Source of the DNA: Camelus dromedarius | Taxonomy: Eukaryota | Length of the DNA stretch: 64,000 bases | Reading direction: 5' to 3' | Assembly (NCBI RefSeq): GCF_036321535.1 | Contig: NC_087436.1 | Location: 38,690,001-38,754,000 of the forward strand | Shown here: piece after piece, positions 7,528 to 58,600 of the stretch | How the letters are laid out: the number at the start of each line of letters is the position of its first letter | Numbering within the stretch: the stretch's first letter is position 1 | The notes under the pieces: generated by a model | What the model saw: only the letters and a program-made list of their open reading frames with translations | Databases searched by the model: none | Told to the model about the DNA's origin: nothing | Position numbers and translations under genes: made by a program

Positions 7528-7592
<65 letters not shown>

Positions 7593-7609
7593 CCTACCTA
7601 CCTACCTAC

Positions 7610-7681
<72 letters not shown>

Positions 7682-9224: not shown

Positions 9225-10706
9225 TCCTTTTTATAATTCCCTACCCCTATATTGCCCTTCCCTCCACTCCTCTCCCCACTGATAACCACTAGTTTGTTCT
9301 CTATATCTATGAATCTGCTTCTTTTTTGTTTTATTCATTAGTTTGTTGTATTTTTTGGATTCCACCTACAAGTGATACCATACAGTATTTGTCTTTCTCT
9401 ATCTGACTTATTTCACTTAGCATAATGCCCTCCAAGTTCATCCATGTTGCTGCAAATGGCAAAATTCCATTCTTTTTTATGGCTAAGTAGTAGTATGTTG
9501 TTTATATACACCACTTATTCTTTATCCATTCATCTGTTGATGGAGCAACTTAGGTTGCTTCCACACCTTGGCAACTGTAAATAATGCTTCTGTGAACACT
9601 GGGATGGGTATTGTTTTGAATTAGTGTTTTTGGTTTTTTCATTTATACCCAGGAGTAGAATTGCTGGTTCATATGGTAGTTTTATTTTTAGTTTTTTGAG
9701 AAATCTTCAACTGTTTTCCACAGTGGCTGCATCAATCTACATTCCCACTAACAGTGTACAAGGGTTCCCTTTTCTCTACATCCTCACCATAATTTGTTAT
9801 TTGTGTTCTTTTGATGATAGCCATTCTGACAGATGTGAGGTGATATCTCATTGTGGTTTTGATTTGCATTTCCCTGGTGGTTAGCCACGTTGAGCATCTT
9901 TTCATGTGCCTGTTGACCATCTGTATTTCCTCTTTGGAAAAATGTCTATTCAGGTCCTGCCCATGTTTTAATTGGGTTGCTTTTTGATACTGAGTTGTAA
10001 GAGCTGTTTATATATGGTTGATATTAATCCCTTGTCAGTTATATCATTTGCAAATATTTTCTCCTATTCAGTAGATTGTCTTTTCGTTTTGTCAATGGTT
10101 TTCTTTGCTGTGCAAAAGCTTTTAAATGTTATTATGTACCAGTTGTTTATTTTTGCATTTATTTCCTTTGCTTTAGGAGACAGATCCAAAAAAATACTGC
10201 TGTGACTTATATCAGAGAGTGTTCTGCCAATGTTTTCCTCTAGGAATTTTATAGTATCCAGTTTTACATTTAGGTCTTTAATCAATTTAGAGTTTATTTT
10301 TGTATATGGTGTTAGAGGATGTTCTAATTTTATTCTTTTACATGTAGCTGTCCAGTTTTCTGAATACCACTCATTGAAGGGATCATCTTTTCTTCTTCAT
10401 ATATTCTTGCCTCCTTTGTCATAGATTAATCGATCATAAGTGGGTGGGTTTATTTCTGGGTTCTCTACTTTTTTCCATTGATCTATGTGTCTGTTTTTGT
10501 GCCAGTTTCATACTGTTTTCATTACTGTAGCTTTGTAGTATAGTCTGAAGTCAGGGAGCATGATTCCTCCAGCTCTGTTCTTCTTTCTCAAGATTGTTTT
10601 GGCTATTTGGGGTATTTTGTGTTTCCATATAAATTTTTAAATTATTTGTTCTAGCTCTATGAAAAATGTCATTGGTATTTGATAGGGATTGCATTGAATC
10701 TGTAGA
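9225..10706 (-). mobile_element. LINE-1 fragment (ORF2 C-terminus plus partial 3'UTR), lacking the extreme 3' end
   Basis: ORF 9732..9920(-) [34 protein letters not shown] and ORF 10064..10285(-) [19 protein letters not shown] are L1 ORF2p C-terminal motifs. Confidence 0.96.
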
Positions 10707-20413: not shown

Positions 20414-20506
<93 letters not shown>

Positions 20507-21388: not shown

Positions 21389-21945
21389 TGTATTAGCTTT
21401 GAGACCGTTAGCTGCTATAACAAATAAATTTACAAATTTACAGTATGATAGCTCAAATGCAGTAAACTTTTATTTCCCACTCATTTTAAGTCGAAAGTGG
21501 GAATTCCTGGTTGATGGATGGTCTTTTCTGAGCAGAATTCAGAGACCCAGGCTTCTTCCAGTTTTGGCTCCATCATTTTCAGCATACGGTTTCCAATATA
21601 ACAGGCTACTCTTCAACCAATCAAAAGGGGAAGGCATAAATATCATTAAGTGGAAAGTTTTCCTGGACCAAGCCTGGAAGTGGACCAGGCCACTTCCTCT
21701 CATATTCCACTGGCTGGAACTCAGTTACATGGCCACACCTCACTTCAAAGGGAGCTGGATGCGGGGAGGGTATAACTCAGTGGTAGAATGTGTGCTTAGT
21801 GTGCATGAGGTCCTGGGTTCAATCTTCAGGACCTTCATTTAAACAAACAAACAAACCTAATTACCTCTTCCCCCACCAAAAAAAAAAAAAATGCAAAGGA
21901 AACTGGAAGATATAGCCCAAGATATGCTCAGGATGATGGGGAACA
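21389..21945 (-). mobile_element. Old MaLR LTR (MLT1K/L-like), interrupted by a SINE
   Basis: tagctgctataacaaa, ttcagagacccaggcttcttcca, tcatattccactggctggaactcagttacatggccacacct. Confidence 0.75.
21763..21891 (+). mobile_element. tRNA-derived SINE (camelid Vic-1 type)
   Basis: ggggagggtataactcagtggtaga (A box)...gtcctgggttcaatc (B box)...aaacctaattacctc, poly(A) tail, diverged TSD caaagggagctgga/caaaggaaactgga. Confidence 0.9.
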
Positions 21946-23150: not shown

Positions 23151-23993
23151 CCAGAATTTCCAAAACCTTTTAAACCGATTTTTCTTTTTCTTTTTTTAAT
23201 TGAGATGTAAATAATATAACATTATATTATATAGTTTCGAGTGTACAGCATAGTGATTTGATATTTGTGTATGTTGCAGCATCATTACTACAAGACGTCT
23301 GGTAACATCTATTACAACATATAACTACCAAAAAAAATTTTTTCTTGTGAAGAGTACTTTTAAGATCTACTCTCTTAGCAACTGTCAAATAGGCAGCACA
23401 GAATTTTTAACTATAGTCACCATGCTGTACATTACATCCCTATGATATATTTATTTTATGACTGAAAGTTTGTACTTGTGCCTTTTGACCCCCTTTATCC
23501 ATTTTGTCCACCACTCTCCCCCTGTTCTCTGTATCTGTGAGCTTGTTTTTTTTTAAGATTCCTCATATAAATATGATCATATAGTGTTTGTCTTTCTCTG
23601 GTTTACTTATTTCACTTTGCAGAATGCCCTCAAGTTCCATCCATGTTGTGGCAAATGGCAAGATTTCATTTTTTATGACCGAATAATATTGTTATGTCTA
23701 TATACCACATTATTTATTTCTCAGTTAACATTTAGGTTGTTTCCACATCTTTGACCATTGTAAATAATTCAGTGAACATGAGGGTGCATATATTTTTTTG
23801 AATTAGAGTTTTTGTTTTCTTCAGATAAATACCAAAAAGTGGAATTGCTGGATGATATGGTAGTTCTATTTTTAAGTTTTTGAGGACCCCTCCAATACTG
23901 TTTTCCATAGTGACTGCTGCATTAACTTACATTCCCACCAGTAGTGCACAACAGTTGCCTTTTCTCCACATCTTTGCCAACACTTACTATTTC

Positions 23994-24768
23994 CATGTCT
24001 GGTAGCTCCTTTGTAAGCATCTTTGCCACAGACATCTTTGCCACAGTAATTTTTTGCTGCAAATATTTTTGCCATGTAACTACTTAGCCATAAGGCAATT
24101 TTGCCACAAAAGATAAAGTAACAAAAATAAAAGAGGGACATTAAAAAGAGATAAACATGAAACATGAGAAATTAATAATGAAATTACAGACACTTCATTG
24201 CAAAATACAAAATATTTGAATACATTTAAAATATGTGTATATTTATGGCAATACTGCACAAATAATTTATTTTACTTTATGGGTTGTGCCTAAGCACTTG
24301 TCTTCCAAGTCTTTTTTACATAGTATTTTACATTAAAAAAATTTTTTTGTTGTTCATTTATCCTTCTCCTTGTTCAGCATCACACTTTTTCTTTTTTTAC
24401 CAAAATTTCTTCCTTCATTAAGAGAGTTTCCAAATACTGGGATGCATATTTATAACCGAGCTTTGTGTTGCATTGTAAAAGCCTTCCACACTGTTGTTTG
24501 CTCTTGGAATATTGTGTCACACACATGTCTATTGATAGGCGTTCCGAAGTTCTATGGCAAATGTGGATTTGGCCTCTTTCTTTTCCAATGTAGTGTGTTT
24601 CAAAATAAAAAACCAACCAGTCATCATCTGTCATGATTTTTGTATGTATATGTCAAACCAAACTGTCAACCATTTGTTTTATTTTTATGGCAAAATTGCC
24701 TTACACCCAATTAGTTATGCATCAGAAATGCTTGTAACAAAGATCCTCATAGCAAAATTACCTAGAAC
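23994..24768 (-). mobile_element. Mutator-like (MULE) DNA transposon deletion derivative with transposase remnant
   Basis: Imperfect ~100-bp TIRs with a perfect inverted 16-mer (taaggcaattttgcca at 24091-24106 / 24688-24703). Flanks tactatttc/aattatttc (9 bp). The minus strand encodes YFETHYIG and, in another frame, FAIELRNAY..IPRANNSVEGFYNA..HPSIWKL. Confidence 0.85.
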
Positions 24769-24789
24769 AATTATTTCTTGTCTTTTTAA

Positions 24790-25409
24790 AAATTTTTAAA
24801 CATTTTTTATTGAGTTATAGTCATTTTACAATGTTATGTCAAATTCCAGTGTAGAGCACAATTTTTCAGTTATACATAAAGATACGTATATTCATTGTCA
24901 CATTTTTTCGCTATGAGCTACCACAAGATCTTATATATATTTCTCTGTGCTATACAGCATAATCTTGTTTATCTATTCTACATATGCCTGTCAGTATCTA
25001 CAAATTTCGAACTCCCAGTGTGTCCCTTCCCACCCCTCTTCCCCTTGGCAACCACAAGTTTGCATTCTATGTCTATGAGTCTGTTTCTGTTTTGTATTTA
25101 TGTTCTATTTTTTTTAGATTCCACATATGAGCGATCTCATATGGTATTTTTCTTTCTCTTTCTGGTTTACTTCACTTAGAATGACATTGTCCAGGGCCAT
25201 CCATGTTGCTGCAAGTGGCATTATGTTGTCATTTTTATGGCTGAATGGTAGTCCAATGTATAAATATACCACATCTTCTTTATCCAGTCATCTGTTGATG
25301 GACATTTAGGCTGTTTCCATGTCTTGGCTATTGTAAATAGTGCTGCTATGAACATTGGGGTGCAGGTGTCATTTTGAAGTAGGGTTCCTTCTGGATATAT
25401 GCTCATGTA
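24790..25409 (-). mobile_element. Younger 5'-truncated LINE-1 with TSD
   Basis: ORF 25221..25406(-) DTCTPMFIAALFTIAKTWKQPKCPSTDDWIKKMWYIYT. TSD ttcttgtctttttaa at 24775-24789 and 25410-25424. Confidence 0.95.
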
Positions 25410-25849
25410 TTCTTGTCTTTTTAATAATAGTCATCCTAACAGGTGTAAAGTGATATCTCATTGTGGTTTTGATTTGCATTTCTCTGATGATTTGTAATGC
25501 TGAGCATCTTTTCACTTACCTGTTGGACATCTGTATGTCTTCTCAGAAAAATGTCTATTCAGTTCCTCCCATTTTTAAATAAGATTTTTTTTTTGCTGTT
25601 GTGTGAGATATATTTGGCTATTAACCTTTTATTGGATATATGATTTGCAAAAATATTCTCTCATTCAGTAGTTTGTCTTTTCATTTTGCTGATGATTTTG
25701 TTTGCTGTGTAGAAGCTTTTTAGCTTGATATAGTCTCACTTGTTTATTTTTGCTTTTTTTGCCTTTGCTTTTGGTGTCAAATCCAAGAAGTCATCATCAA
25801 AACTGATGTCAAGGAGCTTCCTTGAATTTTCCTTTTTATGTAATAACTC

Positions 25850-33104: not shown

Positions 33105-34035
33105 TTTTTTTTTAATTGAAGTATAGTTGATTTACAATGTTGTGTTAGTTTCAGGTGCACAGCAAAGAGATTTAGTTACACAGATTTTTTTCCATTCTTT
33201 TCTCAGATTCTTTTCCATTATAGGTAATTATAAGATATTGAATATAATTCCCTGTGCTATACAGTAGGTCCTTGTTGTTTATCTGTTTTATGTATAGTAG
33301 TGTATATATGTTAATCCCAAACTCCTAATTTATCCTTTCCCCTCCTTTCCCCTTTAGTAACTGTAGTTTGTTTTCTATGGCTGTAAGTCTATTTCTGGTT
33401 TATAAATAAATTCTTTTGTATCAATTTTTTTAGATTCCACACATAAGTGATATCATATGATATTTGTCTTTCTCTGTTTTACTTAACTTCATTTAATATG
33501 ATAATCTCTAGGTCCATCCATGTTGCTGCAAATGGCATTATTTCATTGTTTTTATGGCTGAGTAATGTTACATGGTATATGTATATACTACATCTTCTTT
33601 ATCCATTAATCTGTTGATGGACATTTAGGTTGCTTCCATATCTTGGCTATTGTAAATAGTGCTGCTGTGAACACTGACTGGGGTGTATGTATCTTTTTGA
33701 ATTAGAGTTTTCTCCAGATAATATGCCCAGGAGTGGGATTGCAAGATCATATGGTAAATCTATTTTTAGATTTTTAAGGAACCTCCATATCATTCTCTAT
33801 AGTGAATGCACCAATTTACATTTCCACAAACAGTGTAGAAGGGTTCCTTTTTCTCCACACCCTCTCCAACATTTATCATTTGTGGACTTTTTAATGATGG
33901 CCATTCTGACTGATGTGAAGTGATACCTCATTGTAGTTTGGGATTCCTTTCTTTTTTGTGTGTATACCTATTACAGATTTTTAGTTTGTGGTTACCATGA
34001 GGTTTTAGTATAGAAGTTATATATATATGTATATA

Positions 34036-34067
<32 letters not shown>

Positions 34068-51412: not shown

Positions 51413-52093
51413 CTACTCAAGTAATTGCTTAGACAACAGAGATCTGCTTCAGGGGCTCTTCCACTATGCTTAGTGGAAAGTAGCAATATTTTTAAATATA
51501 GTCTCAGTGGACATTCCCTTTAAAATTCATATTAACTAGCATTTGACTTACATCTTCTTAGTTGTATGGTAGAGTGAGAAACCACATCAAAACCCCAGCA
51601 TTTCTTTATCCAGTAGGTTACTAAATAATATGTGGTTAGAGGGCAGTATAGTCAACAGCATGATTTGAACATGAAATTTAAAACTTCTCATCGTCTATCC
51701 TGAGTCCTCTATTTACTGCTGGTCCTCCCTGAAACCTAAGCATCATGCTACCTCTTACAATTCTCTGCTTGGGTTCAAGTCTGTCCACTTTTGAAAGACA
51801 ATGTTAGGTAGGTTGAACTATTTCAGTTGGGCACCCAGGTTCAGGCTGTCATGTGCTGAAGCAAGAAACTTGCCAGCTTTAAAAGTTTTGCTGATTTTTT
51901 TATGTTGATTCATCCCTGAACAACCAAAAAAAAAAAAAAAAAGTTTAATGTAGTCCAGTAACCCATTCCACTTAAGTATTTTAGGCAATCCTAACTCTGA
52001 AAATACTCAACAATAAAACAATGAGAAGCAACATTTTTAGTCATCCAATATGAGCAGTTTATCTATTAGCAACTTTGTTGGAAAGTGCAGACT

Positions 52094-52172
52094 ATTAGGT
52101 TGAATGATATGAAATTGCCAATTTTTCCAGTTTTTTTTTTAATCTTCAAAAATGGTAATTTCAGATGACACA
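52094..52172. mobile_element. MADE2-like mariner MITE
   Basis: tattaggttgaatgatatgaaattgcca...aaaaatggtaatttcagatg palindromic structure. Confidence 0.8.
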
Positions 52173-52314
52173 CCATAACATGAAGTCTGTAAATGGTGGT
52201 ATTCCAAACTCCAGCGGTACTCACCTAAATCTCTATGTGGGACAATTGGTGACCCTCCAAAACACCCTCCTCACTGCCCCCCACCTCAGCCTGACCTTCA
52301 GTAATATTTTGGTG

Positions 52315-52761
52315 TGATGGATATCTTCTGTTTGCCTGTCTAGACTTAAGCTCTACCATTCTCACTACCACCCTATTCTGGAGTCCTGGGAGGCTGACTC
52401 GTATGGGCCGATCTGGCCATGTGGCATTCAGGTAGCTTGATAAGCAGAAGATAAGTGGGCAGGCAGACAATGAGATGAGAGTGTTAATTCACCCTCCTCC
52501 ACTCCACTGGGTCATCCTTGGTTATCTGCATCCCTCCCTAACGGCCACACTCTCTACAAATAACTACCCTCAGAGCTCTGGTAACTTCTTCCTTTCTTTC
52601 AGTTGGGGAGAGACTGAAATGGCTCTCTGCTGTTGCTAGTTCTCGAGTTCTACGTAATCCTTATTTTTTTGTTTCTTTAAACACTGCCACACTTTTAAAG
52701 ATAGTCCTTTTACTCAGTTTGAACTTACCTTCTATTTTCTTCAGAAATTCTGACTGAAACA
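52315..52761. mobile_element. ERVL LTR (LTR33-like)
   Basis: cctgggaggctgactcgtatgggc...ctgctgttgctag...cacacttttaaagatagtccttttact...ctgactgaaaca. Confidence 0.65.
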
Positions 52762-52849
52762 GTTAAATAATCACCCAAGCCAGGTTCTCCAAACTAGTAA
52801 CTCCCACACATAAAACCACATTTCATTTTGTGAGTAGCATTTCCTCTAA

Positions 52850-53123
52850 GCACCCCTGGACCAGATAGAGGGTGGGAGGCTGTGAAGGGTATTCCAGACT
52901 ACAGACCCATCTAGGCCCAGGTAGGAGTGAATGAGCCTTCAGATGCTTCCAACCCCAGCCTCCACATCTTCCAACTGAGACTCCAGGTATAGTGGGTTAG
53001 AGACCCTGCTGTACCCTCTGAATTCCTGATCCCCAGAAACCATGAGAGATAAAAACTTATTATAGTTGCTTTAAGCCACTACATTTTGAGGTAACTTGTA
53101 CACAGCAGCAGATAACTTTGACA
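52850..53123 (+). mobile_element. MaLR LTR 3' part (MLT1F/G/H-like)
   Basis: gccttcagatgcttccaaccccagcc...gaattcctgatccccagaaaccatgagagataa...gctttaagccactacattttgaggtaacttgt...agcagataac. Confidence 0.85.
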
Positions 53124-53309
53124 CTTGTCGTCTCTGGTATCTGTCCTCTGAGGAGCTCCCAACCTCTTTCTCTTCCTCACTCACCATCATCTCTGACTCC
53201 TGTGAGAAGAGGTGGCACCAGCACTCACTGAGCCTAATCACACAGCAGACCAGGGTGACTCATTTGTCCTGTTTTCTAAATCTTTCCTGGCAAGACTTCA
53301 CAGCATAAC

Positions 53310-53560
53310 ACAGTGGTAAAGGGTGCACACCCTCTAGCCAAACTGTGTGGCTTCAAGTACTAGCTCTGCCGCTTACTAGCTGTGAGCCCTTGCTCCAGTA
53401 ATACAGTCTTCACGCCCTAGTGTCTTCATCTGCAAGACGGTGACAATAATGGCACGTGACTGATGGGGTTATTAGGAGAATTAAATGCATTTTTTTTGTA
53501 AAGGTCTTAGAAGAGTGCCTGGAATATAGAAAGTGTGACTAAATGTTTTTTTAAAATAAA
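53310..53560 (+). mobile_element. MIR SINE
   Basis: cagtggtaaagggtgcaca...gctctgccgcttactagctgtg...tcttcatctgcaaga...gtaaaggtcttagaagagtgcctgg. Confidence 0.85.
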
Positions 53561-53834
53561 ATAGTGCAGTGTGCCAGAAAACGACCATTTTCCTTACAAA
53601 CAAAGGTAAAAATGTGTAAGACTCACTGAATCCAGAAAACCTTAAGGATAGTCTTTAAAACCTCGTCTCTTCTAAAGCATTCTGAAGTGTTTCATTAAGG
53701 GTGACGTACTAATTACCTGAGATAAGTATATGAACGTACTGTTTTGCTCATTTGTCTGTGGCTTTGTAAGCACAAGATTTGAACTTATATAGCCTGTAGC
53801 TTTCCCTCTTGCTCTTTAATAAATCTTGAGACAT

Positions 53835-54890
53835 GTATATCAGGTCTGGTATATAAGCCAAGATCCTGACAGGGAACAGATGACATTCTCAAACTGTGTA
53901 GTTCAGGAGAGTTCAAATAAGGGACTGTTTCTGAAAGGTGGACAAGATTTTGAGAAGACAATAACAAAAGATAGTACAGCTCGTGATGGCAGGGAGCCAT
54001 TACCTCCCCTAGGCTGTGAGGCAGAGTAGTTGTATGGAGAGGGCTGTCTCGAAGAGACTTTGGCAGAGGGACACAGCCGACCAGGGCTGACCCAGCTGGG
54101 AAGTTACCAGGTGTTTATTTATTGCTGTGAAACAGTAATCACATATTGTGCTCACAATTTTGTGGGTCACAGATTCTGGCAGGGCACAGCAGAGATGGAT
54201 TATTTTTGCTTCACAATGCCTGGAGCCTCTGCTGGGGTGGTTTGAACAGCTGGAGATGTCTGAGACTGCAGGACAGGGGTCATATATCTGGGGCCTCAGT
54301 ACTGCTGTTGGCCGGGTTCCTTGGTTCTTCTCCATGTTATATCTGCTGGGATCACAGTGTCCTCCAAGATACTGTCTTCACTCATATATCTGCCGTGGAA
54401 GGCTGGAACAGGGGATAGCTAGCATTTCTCTCTCTCCATGGGTCTCCGTGGCTCCCTCCAGCAAGGAAGTCTCAGAGTAGTTGACAGCTCAGAGCTCCAG
54501 GAGTGCTCCAAGAGCCCTAGGTAGTGGACTACAAGGCCTCTTGTGATGACCTAGCTGCCAAAGTCCCAAAATGTCACTTCCACTGCATTCAATTATTCAA
54601 GCAAGTCATTTAGGCCAGTCCTGATTAAAGGGGAGAGGAGAATTAGACTCCACCTTTTGACAGGGAACATAGCAAAGAATTTGCAACCATGTTAAGTTCA
54701 TCGTATCAGGTTAATAAAGATTCTGAGGTCAGTTTTCTCCTGGCCCACCATCTCTTGCTGATGCTCCCTATTAACCAAGACAACCAATAGCCAGAGGGCA
54801 TAGGAGCTTGTTGATATAGTCCTTAGAGGTCAGCCTTCTAGGGCACAGAGTGGGACCTGGAGGAACAAACAGAAGGCATCCAGCATATCA
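53835..54890 (-). mobile_element. Old ERVL-type LTR split by an MLT1 LTR (~54110-54708)
   Basis: MLT1 part: tgctcacaattttgtgggtcacagattctggcagggcacagcagagatgg...tcacttccactgcattc...gaattagactccaccttttga. The flanks end gccagagggcataggagc...gtcagccttctagggcacagag. Confidence 0.7.
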
Positions 54891-55549
54891 TATCCAATGA
54901 CTCTCCTAATCTTTAAACATTTGTTTTATGGCTTTCAAGCACTGTTAGAGTTATGTAGGACTGTGTTCTTCAAAACATAGGAATGACCACGAGGAGAGAA
55001 CCATGTAAGCCCACCATTGTCTAATTTGTATTTCCTATTATTGTACCTTTCATTCTTGCAGTCTTAATCAGTGTTCATATAGAACATACAGAACATTCAT
55101 TCCCAGAACACATCCTCAATTTCTGGTACTTCAGTTTCCCACCTACAGGAAAAAATAAACTTATCTCTACTTGGAATCACCCTATCAGAATATTCCTGCA
55201 AATTCTTACAGGGCCTCTAGCATCGTGTCAGTATGTGTGTGCTAGCATGCTGAGGCTTGAGATGCAGGGCACTTGTATCTCAAGAGCCTAGCAATGTCGT
55301 CACACACTGTTAAAACATTTTATTTTGATAGAGGGCAGGGAATGGTAGAGTACCAGGTGAAGGTCTTAAAAATCATACTAAAAAAAAATCACACTTTATG
55401 TCCTTTTCCTTTTGGCTTATCTTAGGAATCAAATAGTTAATACGTTTTCTAGCAAAGACTGGTAAAGTAACATTCTATATCTTCCAGAATTTTTTGCTGC
55501 CCAATAATTTTAAAACATCTTATAATTTCATTTTAAACTAAGTTTCATC

Positions 55550-56058
55550 AGAGTTTTCCAGATTCCTGAAACCAGAAAGAGATTTTTTTCTCCTTAACTA
55601 TCCGCATACTTCTAGTGACAGGTGATATAAGGCACATTCATCTCACAACAAGACATCTGACACTCTTTGTCCTGGGATTAGGTGATTCTGAAGAGGGGGC
55701 GGTAGGAATATTCTTATATAAGTCATTCCTACACCAGGGCAGCTAGCAAAACTTAACAATAAAAAGAACTGAGTTTGAACCAGATAAAGAGATCCCGCTT
55801 AAACCAAACTAAAAATATCCCTAACTTAACTTCCTCTTAGCTGGATCCCCAAAATGTCTGCAGCCACTCCAGTGGTATTACTGAAGAATTCTGAGGAGGA
55901 AATGTTGGGGTGGAAAGAGGAAGTTATCTTAATCAGTTAGCAGTTAAATAGTTACAACCATGTGGACACATTGCTAGGGACCCACTCAGAGACTCTGGAG
56001 GGGCCCTGTAATGAATGATCCTGGAAGCTTCTGGAGCTTTGGGATAAATTCACCTCTG
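55550..56058 (-). mobile_element. hAT-Tip100 element (MER115/Zaphod-like)
   Basis: Minus strand cagaggtgaatttatccc...gggtccctagcaatgtgtccacatgg...ttttggggatccagctaagaggaagttaagttagggata...gtgtaggaatgactt. Confidence 0.85.
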
Positions 56059-56639
56059 CCCTTTTTGCTATAATTTTTCCTCAAGAGGAGTCATTGTGCT
56101 TCCCTGCCTCTATACCTAGATCAGGGACATCCTGATTCAGCTTGACAGACAGCCTGTCCCCTATCCCCACCGCCCCCAGACACTTCCTAATGCTAAATCA
56201 CAGGTAACAAAGATACATGTTTTAGTTCCTCTCTTTTAGAAGCTTCAATTTCCTTATGAAAATTAATCCAAGTCCATCCCAGGGACCTTTCTTTTCTCAA
56301 GGGAATAGTAGCCTTTTGTTTCAACTGTCATCTCCTCTTTGAACAGGGGAAACCTTCCTATCCCACATACACGTAAAGACAGAACTGTAACCAAGAAGGA
56401 CCCTGTTGTCATCGATGACCATCTGATATCTGTAATGGTGTTTGTAACTGTTGAACTATATAATGGTTTACAAGGTTTTCCTCATGCTCTTGCTGACCAA
56501 GGTTGGGCCAGAGAGGAGGGAGGCTTGGGTGGTCCACCCAACCCCCTCATGGTGCTGCCTGCAGGGATCATACTCAGTGCCCTGCTCTTCTCCCTAGTGC
56601 CTTGCTTCTGACCCCAGTGCCCTCCTCTTGACCCTGACA

Positions 56640-57227
56640 CCTCAGAAACAGCAGTTAGAGGTTTTGTGCATCTTGTTGTTCATAACTTGCCCAACTGCTC
56701 ATGTCTGCAGTTGTTTTTGACCCCTTGTGGTTTCCTTGTATTCTGTTATTTGAGCTGCAGGCCTTGGACTGCAGCAGTATGTCCCAAGCCTACTTAAAAG
56801 GTTGAAAGCATTTATCAACCTGACTTTAAACTGCACAAATTTTTCTCTAGAGCTCTTTTCCACAGAACCTCTTCCTATGCATCCTTTGTTCTAGGTACAA
56901 GAATATTAAGAGAGCCCCCAAATCAGAGGTGAACTTCTTACCCAGCAAAGGGAAGGGGACCACTGCAAAAATAAGAACAACTTTGCAACAATTTGTTACC
57001 TGTATATGATCTCTATGGAAACTAGCTCTTCCCCTTGAGCTCTTGAACTTTTACTGTAAAACCCCCTGCCTTCTCTCCCCAGTAGGCTCACAGTCTTAGA
57101 GGCATTAGCCCACTGTAACCTCCTTTGCTTGGCAAAGAAATAAAGCTGCCTTTTCTACTTCATCCAAAACTCTGTCCTCGAGTCTCAATTCACTAAAGCT
57201 GGGTATAGAGGCTGTGTTTTGGTAACA
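56640..57227 (+). mobile_element. ERV1-class solo LTR (5' boundary uncertain)
   Basis: TATA-like tgtaaaaccccct, ttggcaaagaaataaagctg poly(A) signal, ends ttttggtaaca. Confidence 0.75.
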
Positions 57228-57499
57228 AAACTTCACATGATTCTTAGTAGAACAAAGATACCATTCAGAGAAACTTCCTGCCTTCTCTCTCACAGGTTTG
57301 AGATACTCAATTTCTAATTTCCCCACCTCAGTGGATATCCACAGGTGTTGTCTGCCTCAAGAGGCAACTTACTTTTTTTAGGTGACTACAGCAAATACAT
57401 CTATGTATATTTATTAATTACATACTATAACATATTAGGTTATGATGTGGAACACACATCATTTGCTGTTCTCAAGGGCTTTATAATCTGGTATTTGAT

Positions 57500-58600
57500 A
57501 CTTTACTTGACATTAAGCAGTCTATCTGTGCCAGACAGTATTGTGGGAACTGGGGACCCAGTGGTAAAAAACAAACTCAACCTTATGGAGTTTACAGACA
57601 TCAGGAAAAAATAAACAAATAATAAATATAGAACATAATGTCCAAAGTAAGTAAGTGTATCAAGAAAAATACAGCTGTTTTTGGCAATGGGGTGGTTGTT
57701 TGTCCTATTAACTTACGACGTCTGAGAAGATCCTTCTGAGGTGCTATGTGAACAGAGACCCACATTAAGTGAGAGGCTGAGCTATGCAACTGTTGGGGTT
57801 TTTCCAAGGCAGAGAGGGCAGTTGTGAAAGCCCAAATTTGGAGTTTTTTTTTTTTTTAAGTCTTAGTAACAATAAAAAGTGTTAATGAGTCACAAGAACA
57901 GTAAATAAGACGTCAGAAACATTATTTGTTCATTCATTCATTCAATAAATAATTACTGAGCCCTATTATGTTCCTAGGGATACCAATATGAACACAAGAT
58001 TCTAGAGGGTCACAAATAAGACACAAGGTCTGCCCTCCAGTGGCTCATGTCCTGATTTGGAAATAAATTTCAAATAAATAGATTACAATACAGTGCAATG
58101 GTTGAGCAGGTGCTATGAGATTTCTTAAGAGATATACCTAAATGAGCCTTGGGTAGGAGGTGGAGCCTATAGAGGATCTGGGAATATACGTTTCCTGGAG
58201 TACCTAATTTCTAAATTAAATCCAAAGGAAACAGTAGGAGTTAGCCAGAAGCCAAAGAGAATAAATAAAAGCCACATGCAAAGTACTGGGAAAGTGAGGA
58301 CATGCTACATTTAAAGAAATGTGGCACTGATGCTTTTGCAGTAAGTTGGGTTCATATTGTAAATGGCTCTACATGTCCTACTGAGAAGATTGTCCTCTAT
58401 CTAGAGGACACTGGGGAGGCTCTAAAATGTTATAAGAGGGAAGTGACTCCATCAGGCTTATACTGTGGAAAGTTCACTCTGCCTGCAACATGGAGAATGC
58501 ATGGCTTCAAGTATTGAAGACAAGAAGTGGGATGGAGAAAAGGGAATGGATTTAAGAGTCATGATGTAAGCTCAATCTTCAGAACTCCATGATGGGTTGG
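57500..58600 (-). mobile_element. L2 fragments
   Basis: tatctgtgccagacagtattgtgggaactgggga, ttcattcattcattcaataaata, ctagaggacactggggaggct, agttcactctgcctgcaacatggagaatg. Confidence 0.8.

Follow-up and report, generated by a model that had tools for sequence, protein, structure and literature searches.

An internally deleted Mutator-like DNA transposon with a transposase remnant, nested in an older L1 of Camelus dromedarius

The insertion and its site

The DNA analysed here, called the window throughout, is a stretch of 64,000 nucleotides from contig NC_087436.1 of Camelus dromedarius, and all positions refer to it. At 23994-24768 an older L1 is interrupted by a Mutator-like (MULE) DNA transposon that is internally deleted and non-autonomous. 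An initial annotation had described at this place an inverted 16-mer, a doubled repeat, 9-bp flanks, the peptide YFETHYIG and a frame with HPSIWKL, each of which we recovered where it had been placed. The features of the locus are the following (target site duplication, TSD; terminal inverted repeat, TIR):

23541..23993, minus strand: left part of the host L1, an old L1 3' region, provisionally given an L1MA age in the initial annotation, 70-74% identical to four other L1 copies of the window
23985..23993 (alternative register 23986-23994), unstranded: left TSD, 9 bp, TACTATTTC
23994..24117, unstranded: left TIR, downstream of the transposase, with the terminal motif and at least six subrepeats of period 15-16 bp
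24118..24225, minus strand: AT-rich stretch, putatively the untranslated 3' part of the transposase gene, with matching sequence past the stop in other copies
24226..24634, minus strand: C-terminal third of a FLYWCH/MULE transposase, broken by several frameshifts and stops, extending from an acidic run before YFETHYIG to the stop
24484..24486, minus strand: presumed catalytic Glu codon of the DDE triad, GAA, kept, by alignment with E384 of the protein P0020
24678..24768, unstranded: right TIR, which falls short of the left one by about 30 bp (two subrepeats), from the TIR alignment and the periodicity
24769..24777 (alternative register 24770-24778), unstranded: right TSD, 9 bp, AATTATTTC
24788..25407, minus strand: second, separate L1 3' end with its own duplication of about 16 bp (24772-24787 / 25408-25422)
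25408..25789, minus strand: right continuation of the host L1, 76% identical to the L1 at 9817-10192

The two TSDs are identical at 7/9 positions, a match with a chance of 0.003 at a fixed place, and moving the register by one base gives a pair of the same quality, likewise with 9 bp and 7/9. The length of 9 bp, which comes from one insertion site with a decayed pair whose ends are uncertain by one base, lies within the 8-10 bp of MULE-type duplications. In a comparison with an uninterrupted L1 at 9740-9860, the left flank aligned up to position 63 of that L1 and the right flank from position 58. The empty site accordingly holds a single copy of the target, which is found on both sides of the element. 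The duplication of the second L1 overlaps the right TSD of the element, and part of the target is therefore present three times. The initial annotation had dated the transposition later than the host L1. The nesting and the duplicated target agree with this order, and the element is younger than the host L1.

The L1 neighbouring the element is of a type that we take to be camelid, and the same assumption is made for a tRNA-like SINE at 21766-21837. A tRNA-like Rfam match at these positions scored 31 bits, just over the threshold, and is probably the head of a tRNA-derived SINE. Comparison of the 64-kb window with itself revealed no second copy of the element. Elsewhere in the window, GC content is raised to 41-43% and CpG is commoner than in the remainder at 52001-58000, and long microsatellites occur at 7528-7681 (ATCT x38), 20414-20506 (TAT x15 adjoining ATC x17) and 34018-34067 (TA x25).

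Both ends of the element are long TIRs of about 120 bp (left) and about 90 bp (right), as in MULEs, in which TIRs often exceed 100 bp; they share 76% identity across the best 67 nt. Their local alignment score of 73 was reached by none of 2000 shuffles (mean 25, maximum 49), and the 16-mer at 24091-24106 recurs without a mismatch, in reverse complement, at 24688-24703. As in Phantom/Muta elements, the TIRs are made of short subterminal tandem repeats. The sequence CATCTTTGCCACA is present twice, TRF recorded a period of 15 at 24018-24046, and the subrepeat motif of the left end recurs in six copies at spacings of 15, 16, 15, 16 and 16. The autocorrelation at lags 15/16, picked once the period had already been seen, was matched by 1/5000 shuffles for the left TIR and by 24/5000 for the right.

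At 23969-23979, 15 bases ahead of the insertion, the L1 flank carries CATCTTTGCCA, whose 11 letters are also those of the TIR subrepeat. This is probably chance, but it could reflect target choice. A search of viral contigs with the TIR pattern gave 0 matches. Nine metagenome matches to the pattern were all (9/9) judged to be chance, having neither an alignment past the pattern nor a transposase match.

The transposase remnant and its protein relatives

The coding remnant spans about 135 codons on the minus strand, from 24634 to the stop at 24228-24226, and it reaches further towards this stop than had been seen in the initial annotation. YFETHYIG is encoded at 24607-24584 and, past two stops and in a different frame, IPRANNSVEG...HPSIWKL at 24510-24424. 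Other copies of the family have extra sequence at 24426, 24572 and 24617, where their contigs end loosely in the comparison, and the frame breaks or skips at these three points are therefore deletions. The presumed catalytic Glu is retained in this copy and in 24/33 family copies, whereas a conserved Trp, kept in 15/22 copies, has become Arg (CGG) here. In P0020, E384 stands 18 residues past W366, the same spacing as between W401 and E419 of Muta1.

About 70% of the coding region is missing from this copy, including the FLYWCH domain, both Asp residues and the CxxH motif. The first and second Asp, like the (C/D)xxH motif, are deleted here; both Asp motifs are present in the proteins P0015 and P0020, and no family copy reaches this region. 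Two of the closest relatives of full length carry the N-terminal FLYWCH domain that the deleted copy lacks. A Pfam scan of the remnant gave 0 matches for both pieces scanned, because the profile PF10551 spans residues ~187-284 of the intact relatives, a segment deleted here. The initial annotation had named a missing MULE profile hit as grounds for rejecting the classification. The remnant itself does come out blank in this check, but its homologues match, and the blank would be misleading as a refutation.

A phmmer search with the 117-residue main frame against 1.84 billion proteins returned 98 matches at E<=0.001, the best at 1.8e-16. When ten of these (nine longer ones and the top match) were submitted to Pfam, 6/10 passed the cut-off for MULE and two also that for FLYWCH. 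Thus, the remnant matches proteins that lie above the cut-off for the MULE-type DDE transposase (PF10551), with E-values down to 2e-9 against an intact FLYWCH and MULE protein. Two word-index protein searches with the remnant, weak as negatives, found none among 7 candidates and none among 5272, and in a further one 1/2 candidates was another decayed copy. These empty searches, together with the missing Pfam match, are what would speak for chance motifs in AT-rich DNA or for a fragment of another transposon superfamily. The phmmer E-values to 2e-9, the significant TIRs and the multiple copies described below rule this out, and its probability is negligible. The initial classification as a MULE is instead upheld by the matches, by PF10551 in the relatives and by the clade that the family forms in the tree. 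On the features that this copy retains, the element belongs to the MULE superfamily.

The best intact match was P0020 (QQP42000.1) of the copepod Caligus rogercresseyi, which agrees with the family majority at 74/119 residues (62%) in the better-covered columns. Across 144 residues the identity to the family majority is 61%, the next match of that length reaching 52%; with the copy at 23994-24768 itself it is 41%. P0020 contains FLYWCH and MULE domains in an intact open frame of a copepod, whereas the element is dead and mammalian. Its D-D, D-E and W-E spacings are 62, 132 and 18, compared with the 69, 136 and 18 given for Muta1 (PMC5499845). The D-D of 62 and D-E of 132 fit the ranges of 60-76 and 120-135 that a 2026 arthropod survey gives for most families (PMC13359780).

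In the tree, P0020 is sister to the family copies with weak support (82/61). Three of 30 proteins looked up carried a name, and all three were intact and from crustaceans. In the ESM Atlas, queried with one family copy, the nearest cluster was mostly nematode and the next two were arthropod. The protein library holds one representative per 50% cluster, and closer relatives may therefore be hidden in it. P0020 is the nearest protein seen and is not taken as the donor.

Viral contigs contained no relatives of the copepod protein (0/2 candidates). A seeming bacterial MULE, reached through P0023, was rejected. In a search of bacterial genomes, the 80 loci among the matches listed all matched only its last 22 residues, and residues 70-91 of P0023 are identical to an Acinetobacter gene, which makes it a chimeric metagenome contig of host repeat and bacterial DNA. 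P0036, P0110 and P0111 share 55-56% identity with the family majority at their extreme C-termini.

Family copies, age and origin

In four public runs, which carry three organism labels and from which the window itself may derive, 123, 122, 137 and 129 contigs aligned to the element at >=80% (4/4 runs), numbers that are not counts of loci and from which the 80% cut-off and filters hide copies. One contig per run aligned at >=99%, and up to 26 contigs shared one common alternative letter at a single place. These data show a family of dozens of copies or more, which is not to be read as a count. Long pieces of other copies differ from the copy at 23994-24768 by 14-19%, under the same cut-off.

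Among the phmmer matches, 42/98 were judged by eye to be decayed reading frames of the same family in ENA/Logan contigs. The family alignment was built from 39 of these 42 (three near-duplicates were omitted), one other sequence and two pieces of the window, of which 40/42 were aligned. Copies have a median protein identity of 68% to the family majority, a value in which out-of-frame tails are counted and to which each copy contributed through the majority. Several copies continue into sequence matching the 3' region and the TIR of the copy studied here; P0003, P0018, P0066 and P0091, for example, read past the stop into sequence matching 24118-24225. In a tree with 30 other matches, 6/6 family copies fell into one clade (99/96). 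At the column in which the copepod protein has Arg, W occurs 10 times, R 3, Q 3 and G 2 times among 21 copies, a mixture to be expected if a CGG codon decays at its CpG, as it would in a vertebrate genome with methylation.

Two groups of copies share internal junctions. The six sequences P0009 and P0101-P0105 have the deletion junction near 24572 in common (window 24612-24424), with about 61% protein identity, while the P0059 cluster is undeleted there; the six represent this very insertion in a different species or else belong to a sibling deletion subfamily. In P0008, P0013, P0017, P0021, P0037 and P0045, a common, different upstream sequence is joined right before the PTF motif, which suggests a second, common internal-deletion subfamily. 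Residues 1-40 of P0053 and both ends of P0091 are presumably translations of ruminant SINEs, and if this is right, the family is present in ruminants.

The initial annotation had considered the element possibly horizontally acquired. As an ancient event this is plausible, given that the three named intact relatives all come from crustaceans. The patchy, high-identity signature that had been proposed for it was not seen: the copies differ by 14-19% and the best invertebrate protein match is at 62%. A recent, lineage-restricted horizontal transfer into the host group could draw on the invertebrate origin of the named intact relatives and on the exact insertion having appeared, among the matches listed from a near-identical DNA search, only in runs of three organism labels. 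However, such a search of runs carries no information on range, long pieces diverge to the extent given above despite the 80% cut-off, the copies stand at the median of 68% to their majority, and the inserts in P0053 and P0091 are presumably ruminant SINE translations. We regard recent transfer as very unlikely. The multicopy state of the family and the 14-19% difference between long pieces argue for an ancient invasion instead, and the divergence among copies, a rough guide without a fitted rate, suggests an age of tens of millions of years.

An alternative is vertical inheritance from an old vertebrate MULE lineage, with no invertebrate involved, since 62% across 119 residues of a conserved catalytic region is not proof of transfer. 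It has to be set against the three named intact matches, all crustacean, the three best Atlas clusters, all nematode or arthropod, and the available text of PMC6446971, which gives no vertebrate MULE transposase; on balance it is unlikely. The data are most simply read as an ancient transfer from an invertebrate lineage, by which the family would most likely have reached a mammalian ancestor tens of millions of years ago.

Mobilisation, novelty and comparison with known systems

Taking the observed ends, subrepeats, target duplication, homology and multiple copies together, a course of events may be proposed by analogy with Muta1. The autonomous partner would have encoded a FLYWCH zinc-finger and DDE transposase of ~450-470 residues, judging from the intact relatives; no autonomous copy was seen among the family copies examined. 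The Muta1 transposase binds the terminal motif and the subterminal repeats, more repeats giving stronger binding and excision, and cleavage leaves hairpins on the flanks before insertion with 8-9-bp duplications; the Muta1 TIR consists of 12-bp repeats with 3-4-bp linkers, and deleted derivatives are mobile in trans (PMC5499845, PMC5225508). Correspondingly, the transposase of the present family may have attached to the terminal motif and to the subrepeats of 15-16 bp, excised the element with hairpins remaining on the flanks, and inserted it at the target with a 9-base stagger, the repair of which would have made the duplication. The deleted copy was most likely mobilised in trans via its intact ends. 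It landed in the older L1 and then decayed neutrally. There is no sign of function for the single copy at 23994-24768.

Identity with Ricksha, which the initial annotation had also doubted in favour of a poorly described family, is unlikely, in view of the TIR length and of termini and a coding remnant that we take to be different in Ricksha. The Ricksha TIRs are 79 bp (PMC1431705), as opposed to ~120 and ~90 bp here, a mismatch that weighs little because the unit number can vary within such families. The element may nevertheless have been catalogued already, as a Ricksha subfamily, as the horse Phantom element (Marquez and Pritham 2010) or as a Dfam/RepeatMasker entry under another name, which is a real possibility though short of probable. 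A family of dozens of copies or more is likely to be in automatic libraries, and in a survey of camelids, homology to Repbase gave 1-3 'Mud' MITE families for each species, with no further description (PMC8605555 Table 8). Ricksha is curated as a placental family of the MuDR class, and RICKSHA, RICKSHA_0 and Ricksha_a are given as the only human MuDR entries in Repbase (PMC5753468). The available text of Dupeyron et al. 2019 (PMC6446971) has three placental MuDR Repbase entries, all of them Ricksha, and no match for vertebrate entries. It also cites the horse Phantom element, which may be of the same family as ours, and found no transposase in it; these statements, like the TIR length of Ricksha, speak against prior cataloguing. 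A description of such a family was not found in the literature by title and start of abstract, repeat families being mostly published in databases. The terms MULE, MuDR and Mutator are absent from the main text, as available, of two mammal-wide surveys (PMC10162687, bioRxiv 10.1101/2022.12.28.522108), whose supplements or libraries may hold the family, as may those of PMC8605555 and PMC5753468.

The element matters because the 2019 survey, as far as its available text goes, found no MULE transposase in vertebrates and asks whether MULEs are absent there (PMC6446971). The closest intact relatives of the enzyme found here are invertebrate, though MULE transposases have been argued to be missing from vertebrates. 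Here, an element in a mammalian genome shows the ends of a MULE, a duplication of MULE length and a catalytic C-terminus that can still be recognised, which makes the question directly testable from a consensus. If the family is not Ricksha, mammals were invaded by more than one MULE and the family is a datable marker. We tentatively propose, with some doubt of our own, an uncatalogued Phantom/Muta-type invasion independent of Ricksha, from an aquatic arthropod or parasitic nematode into an early even-toed-ungulate or laurasiatherian ancestor; the element would have spread as two or more deletion subfamilies and left transposase fossils distinct enough to decide on the published question of MULE absence from vertebrates.

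Among known systems, Ricksha, Ricksha_0 and Ricksha_a are, like the element, placental, non-autonomous and classed as MuDR. They differ in that their TIRs are 79 bp long and RICKSHA has captured a piece of ERVL/MLT2B (PMC1431705), neither of which fits the element. The Phantom group (group 20, including Muta) combines FLYWCH and MULE domains as do the intact relatives, has TSDs of 8-10 bp and a TIR range of 18-613 bp that includes the element, and counts crustaceans among its hosts, whereas the group as defined in the available text lists no vertebrate and the host here is a mammal (PMC6446971). Membership of the element in the Phantom/Muta group is likely on the features described for the group. 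Overall, the insert very probably belongs to a multicopy Mutator-like family of the Phantom/Muta1 type, as a copy that is dead and non-autonomous. Muta1 of Aedes aegypti, to which it is likened by description, is active and has near-symmetric 145-bp TIRs of 9 units, whereas the element is dead with ends of ~120 and ~90 bp. Both share the foldback-type TIR, the subrepeat period of 15-16 bp, the W-E spacing of 18 and, with the 8-9-bp TSD of Muta1, the size of the duplication, and Muta1 likewise has derivatives with varying subrepeat number (PMC5225508, PMC5499845).
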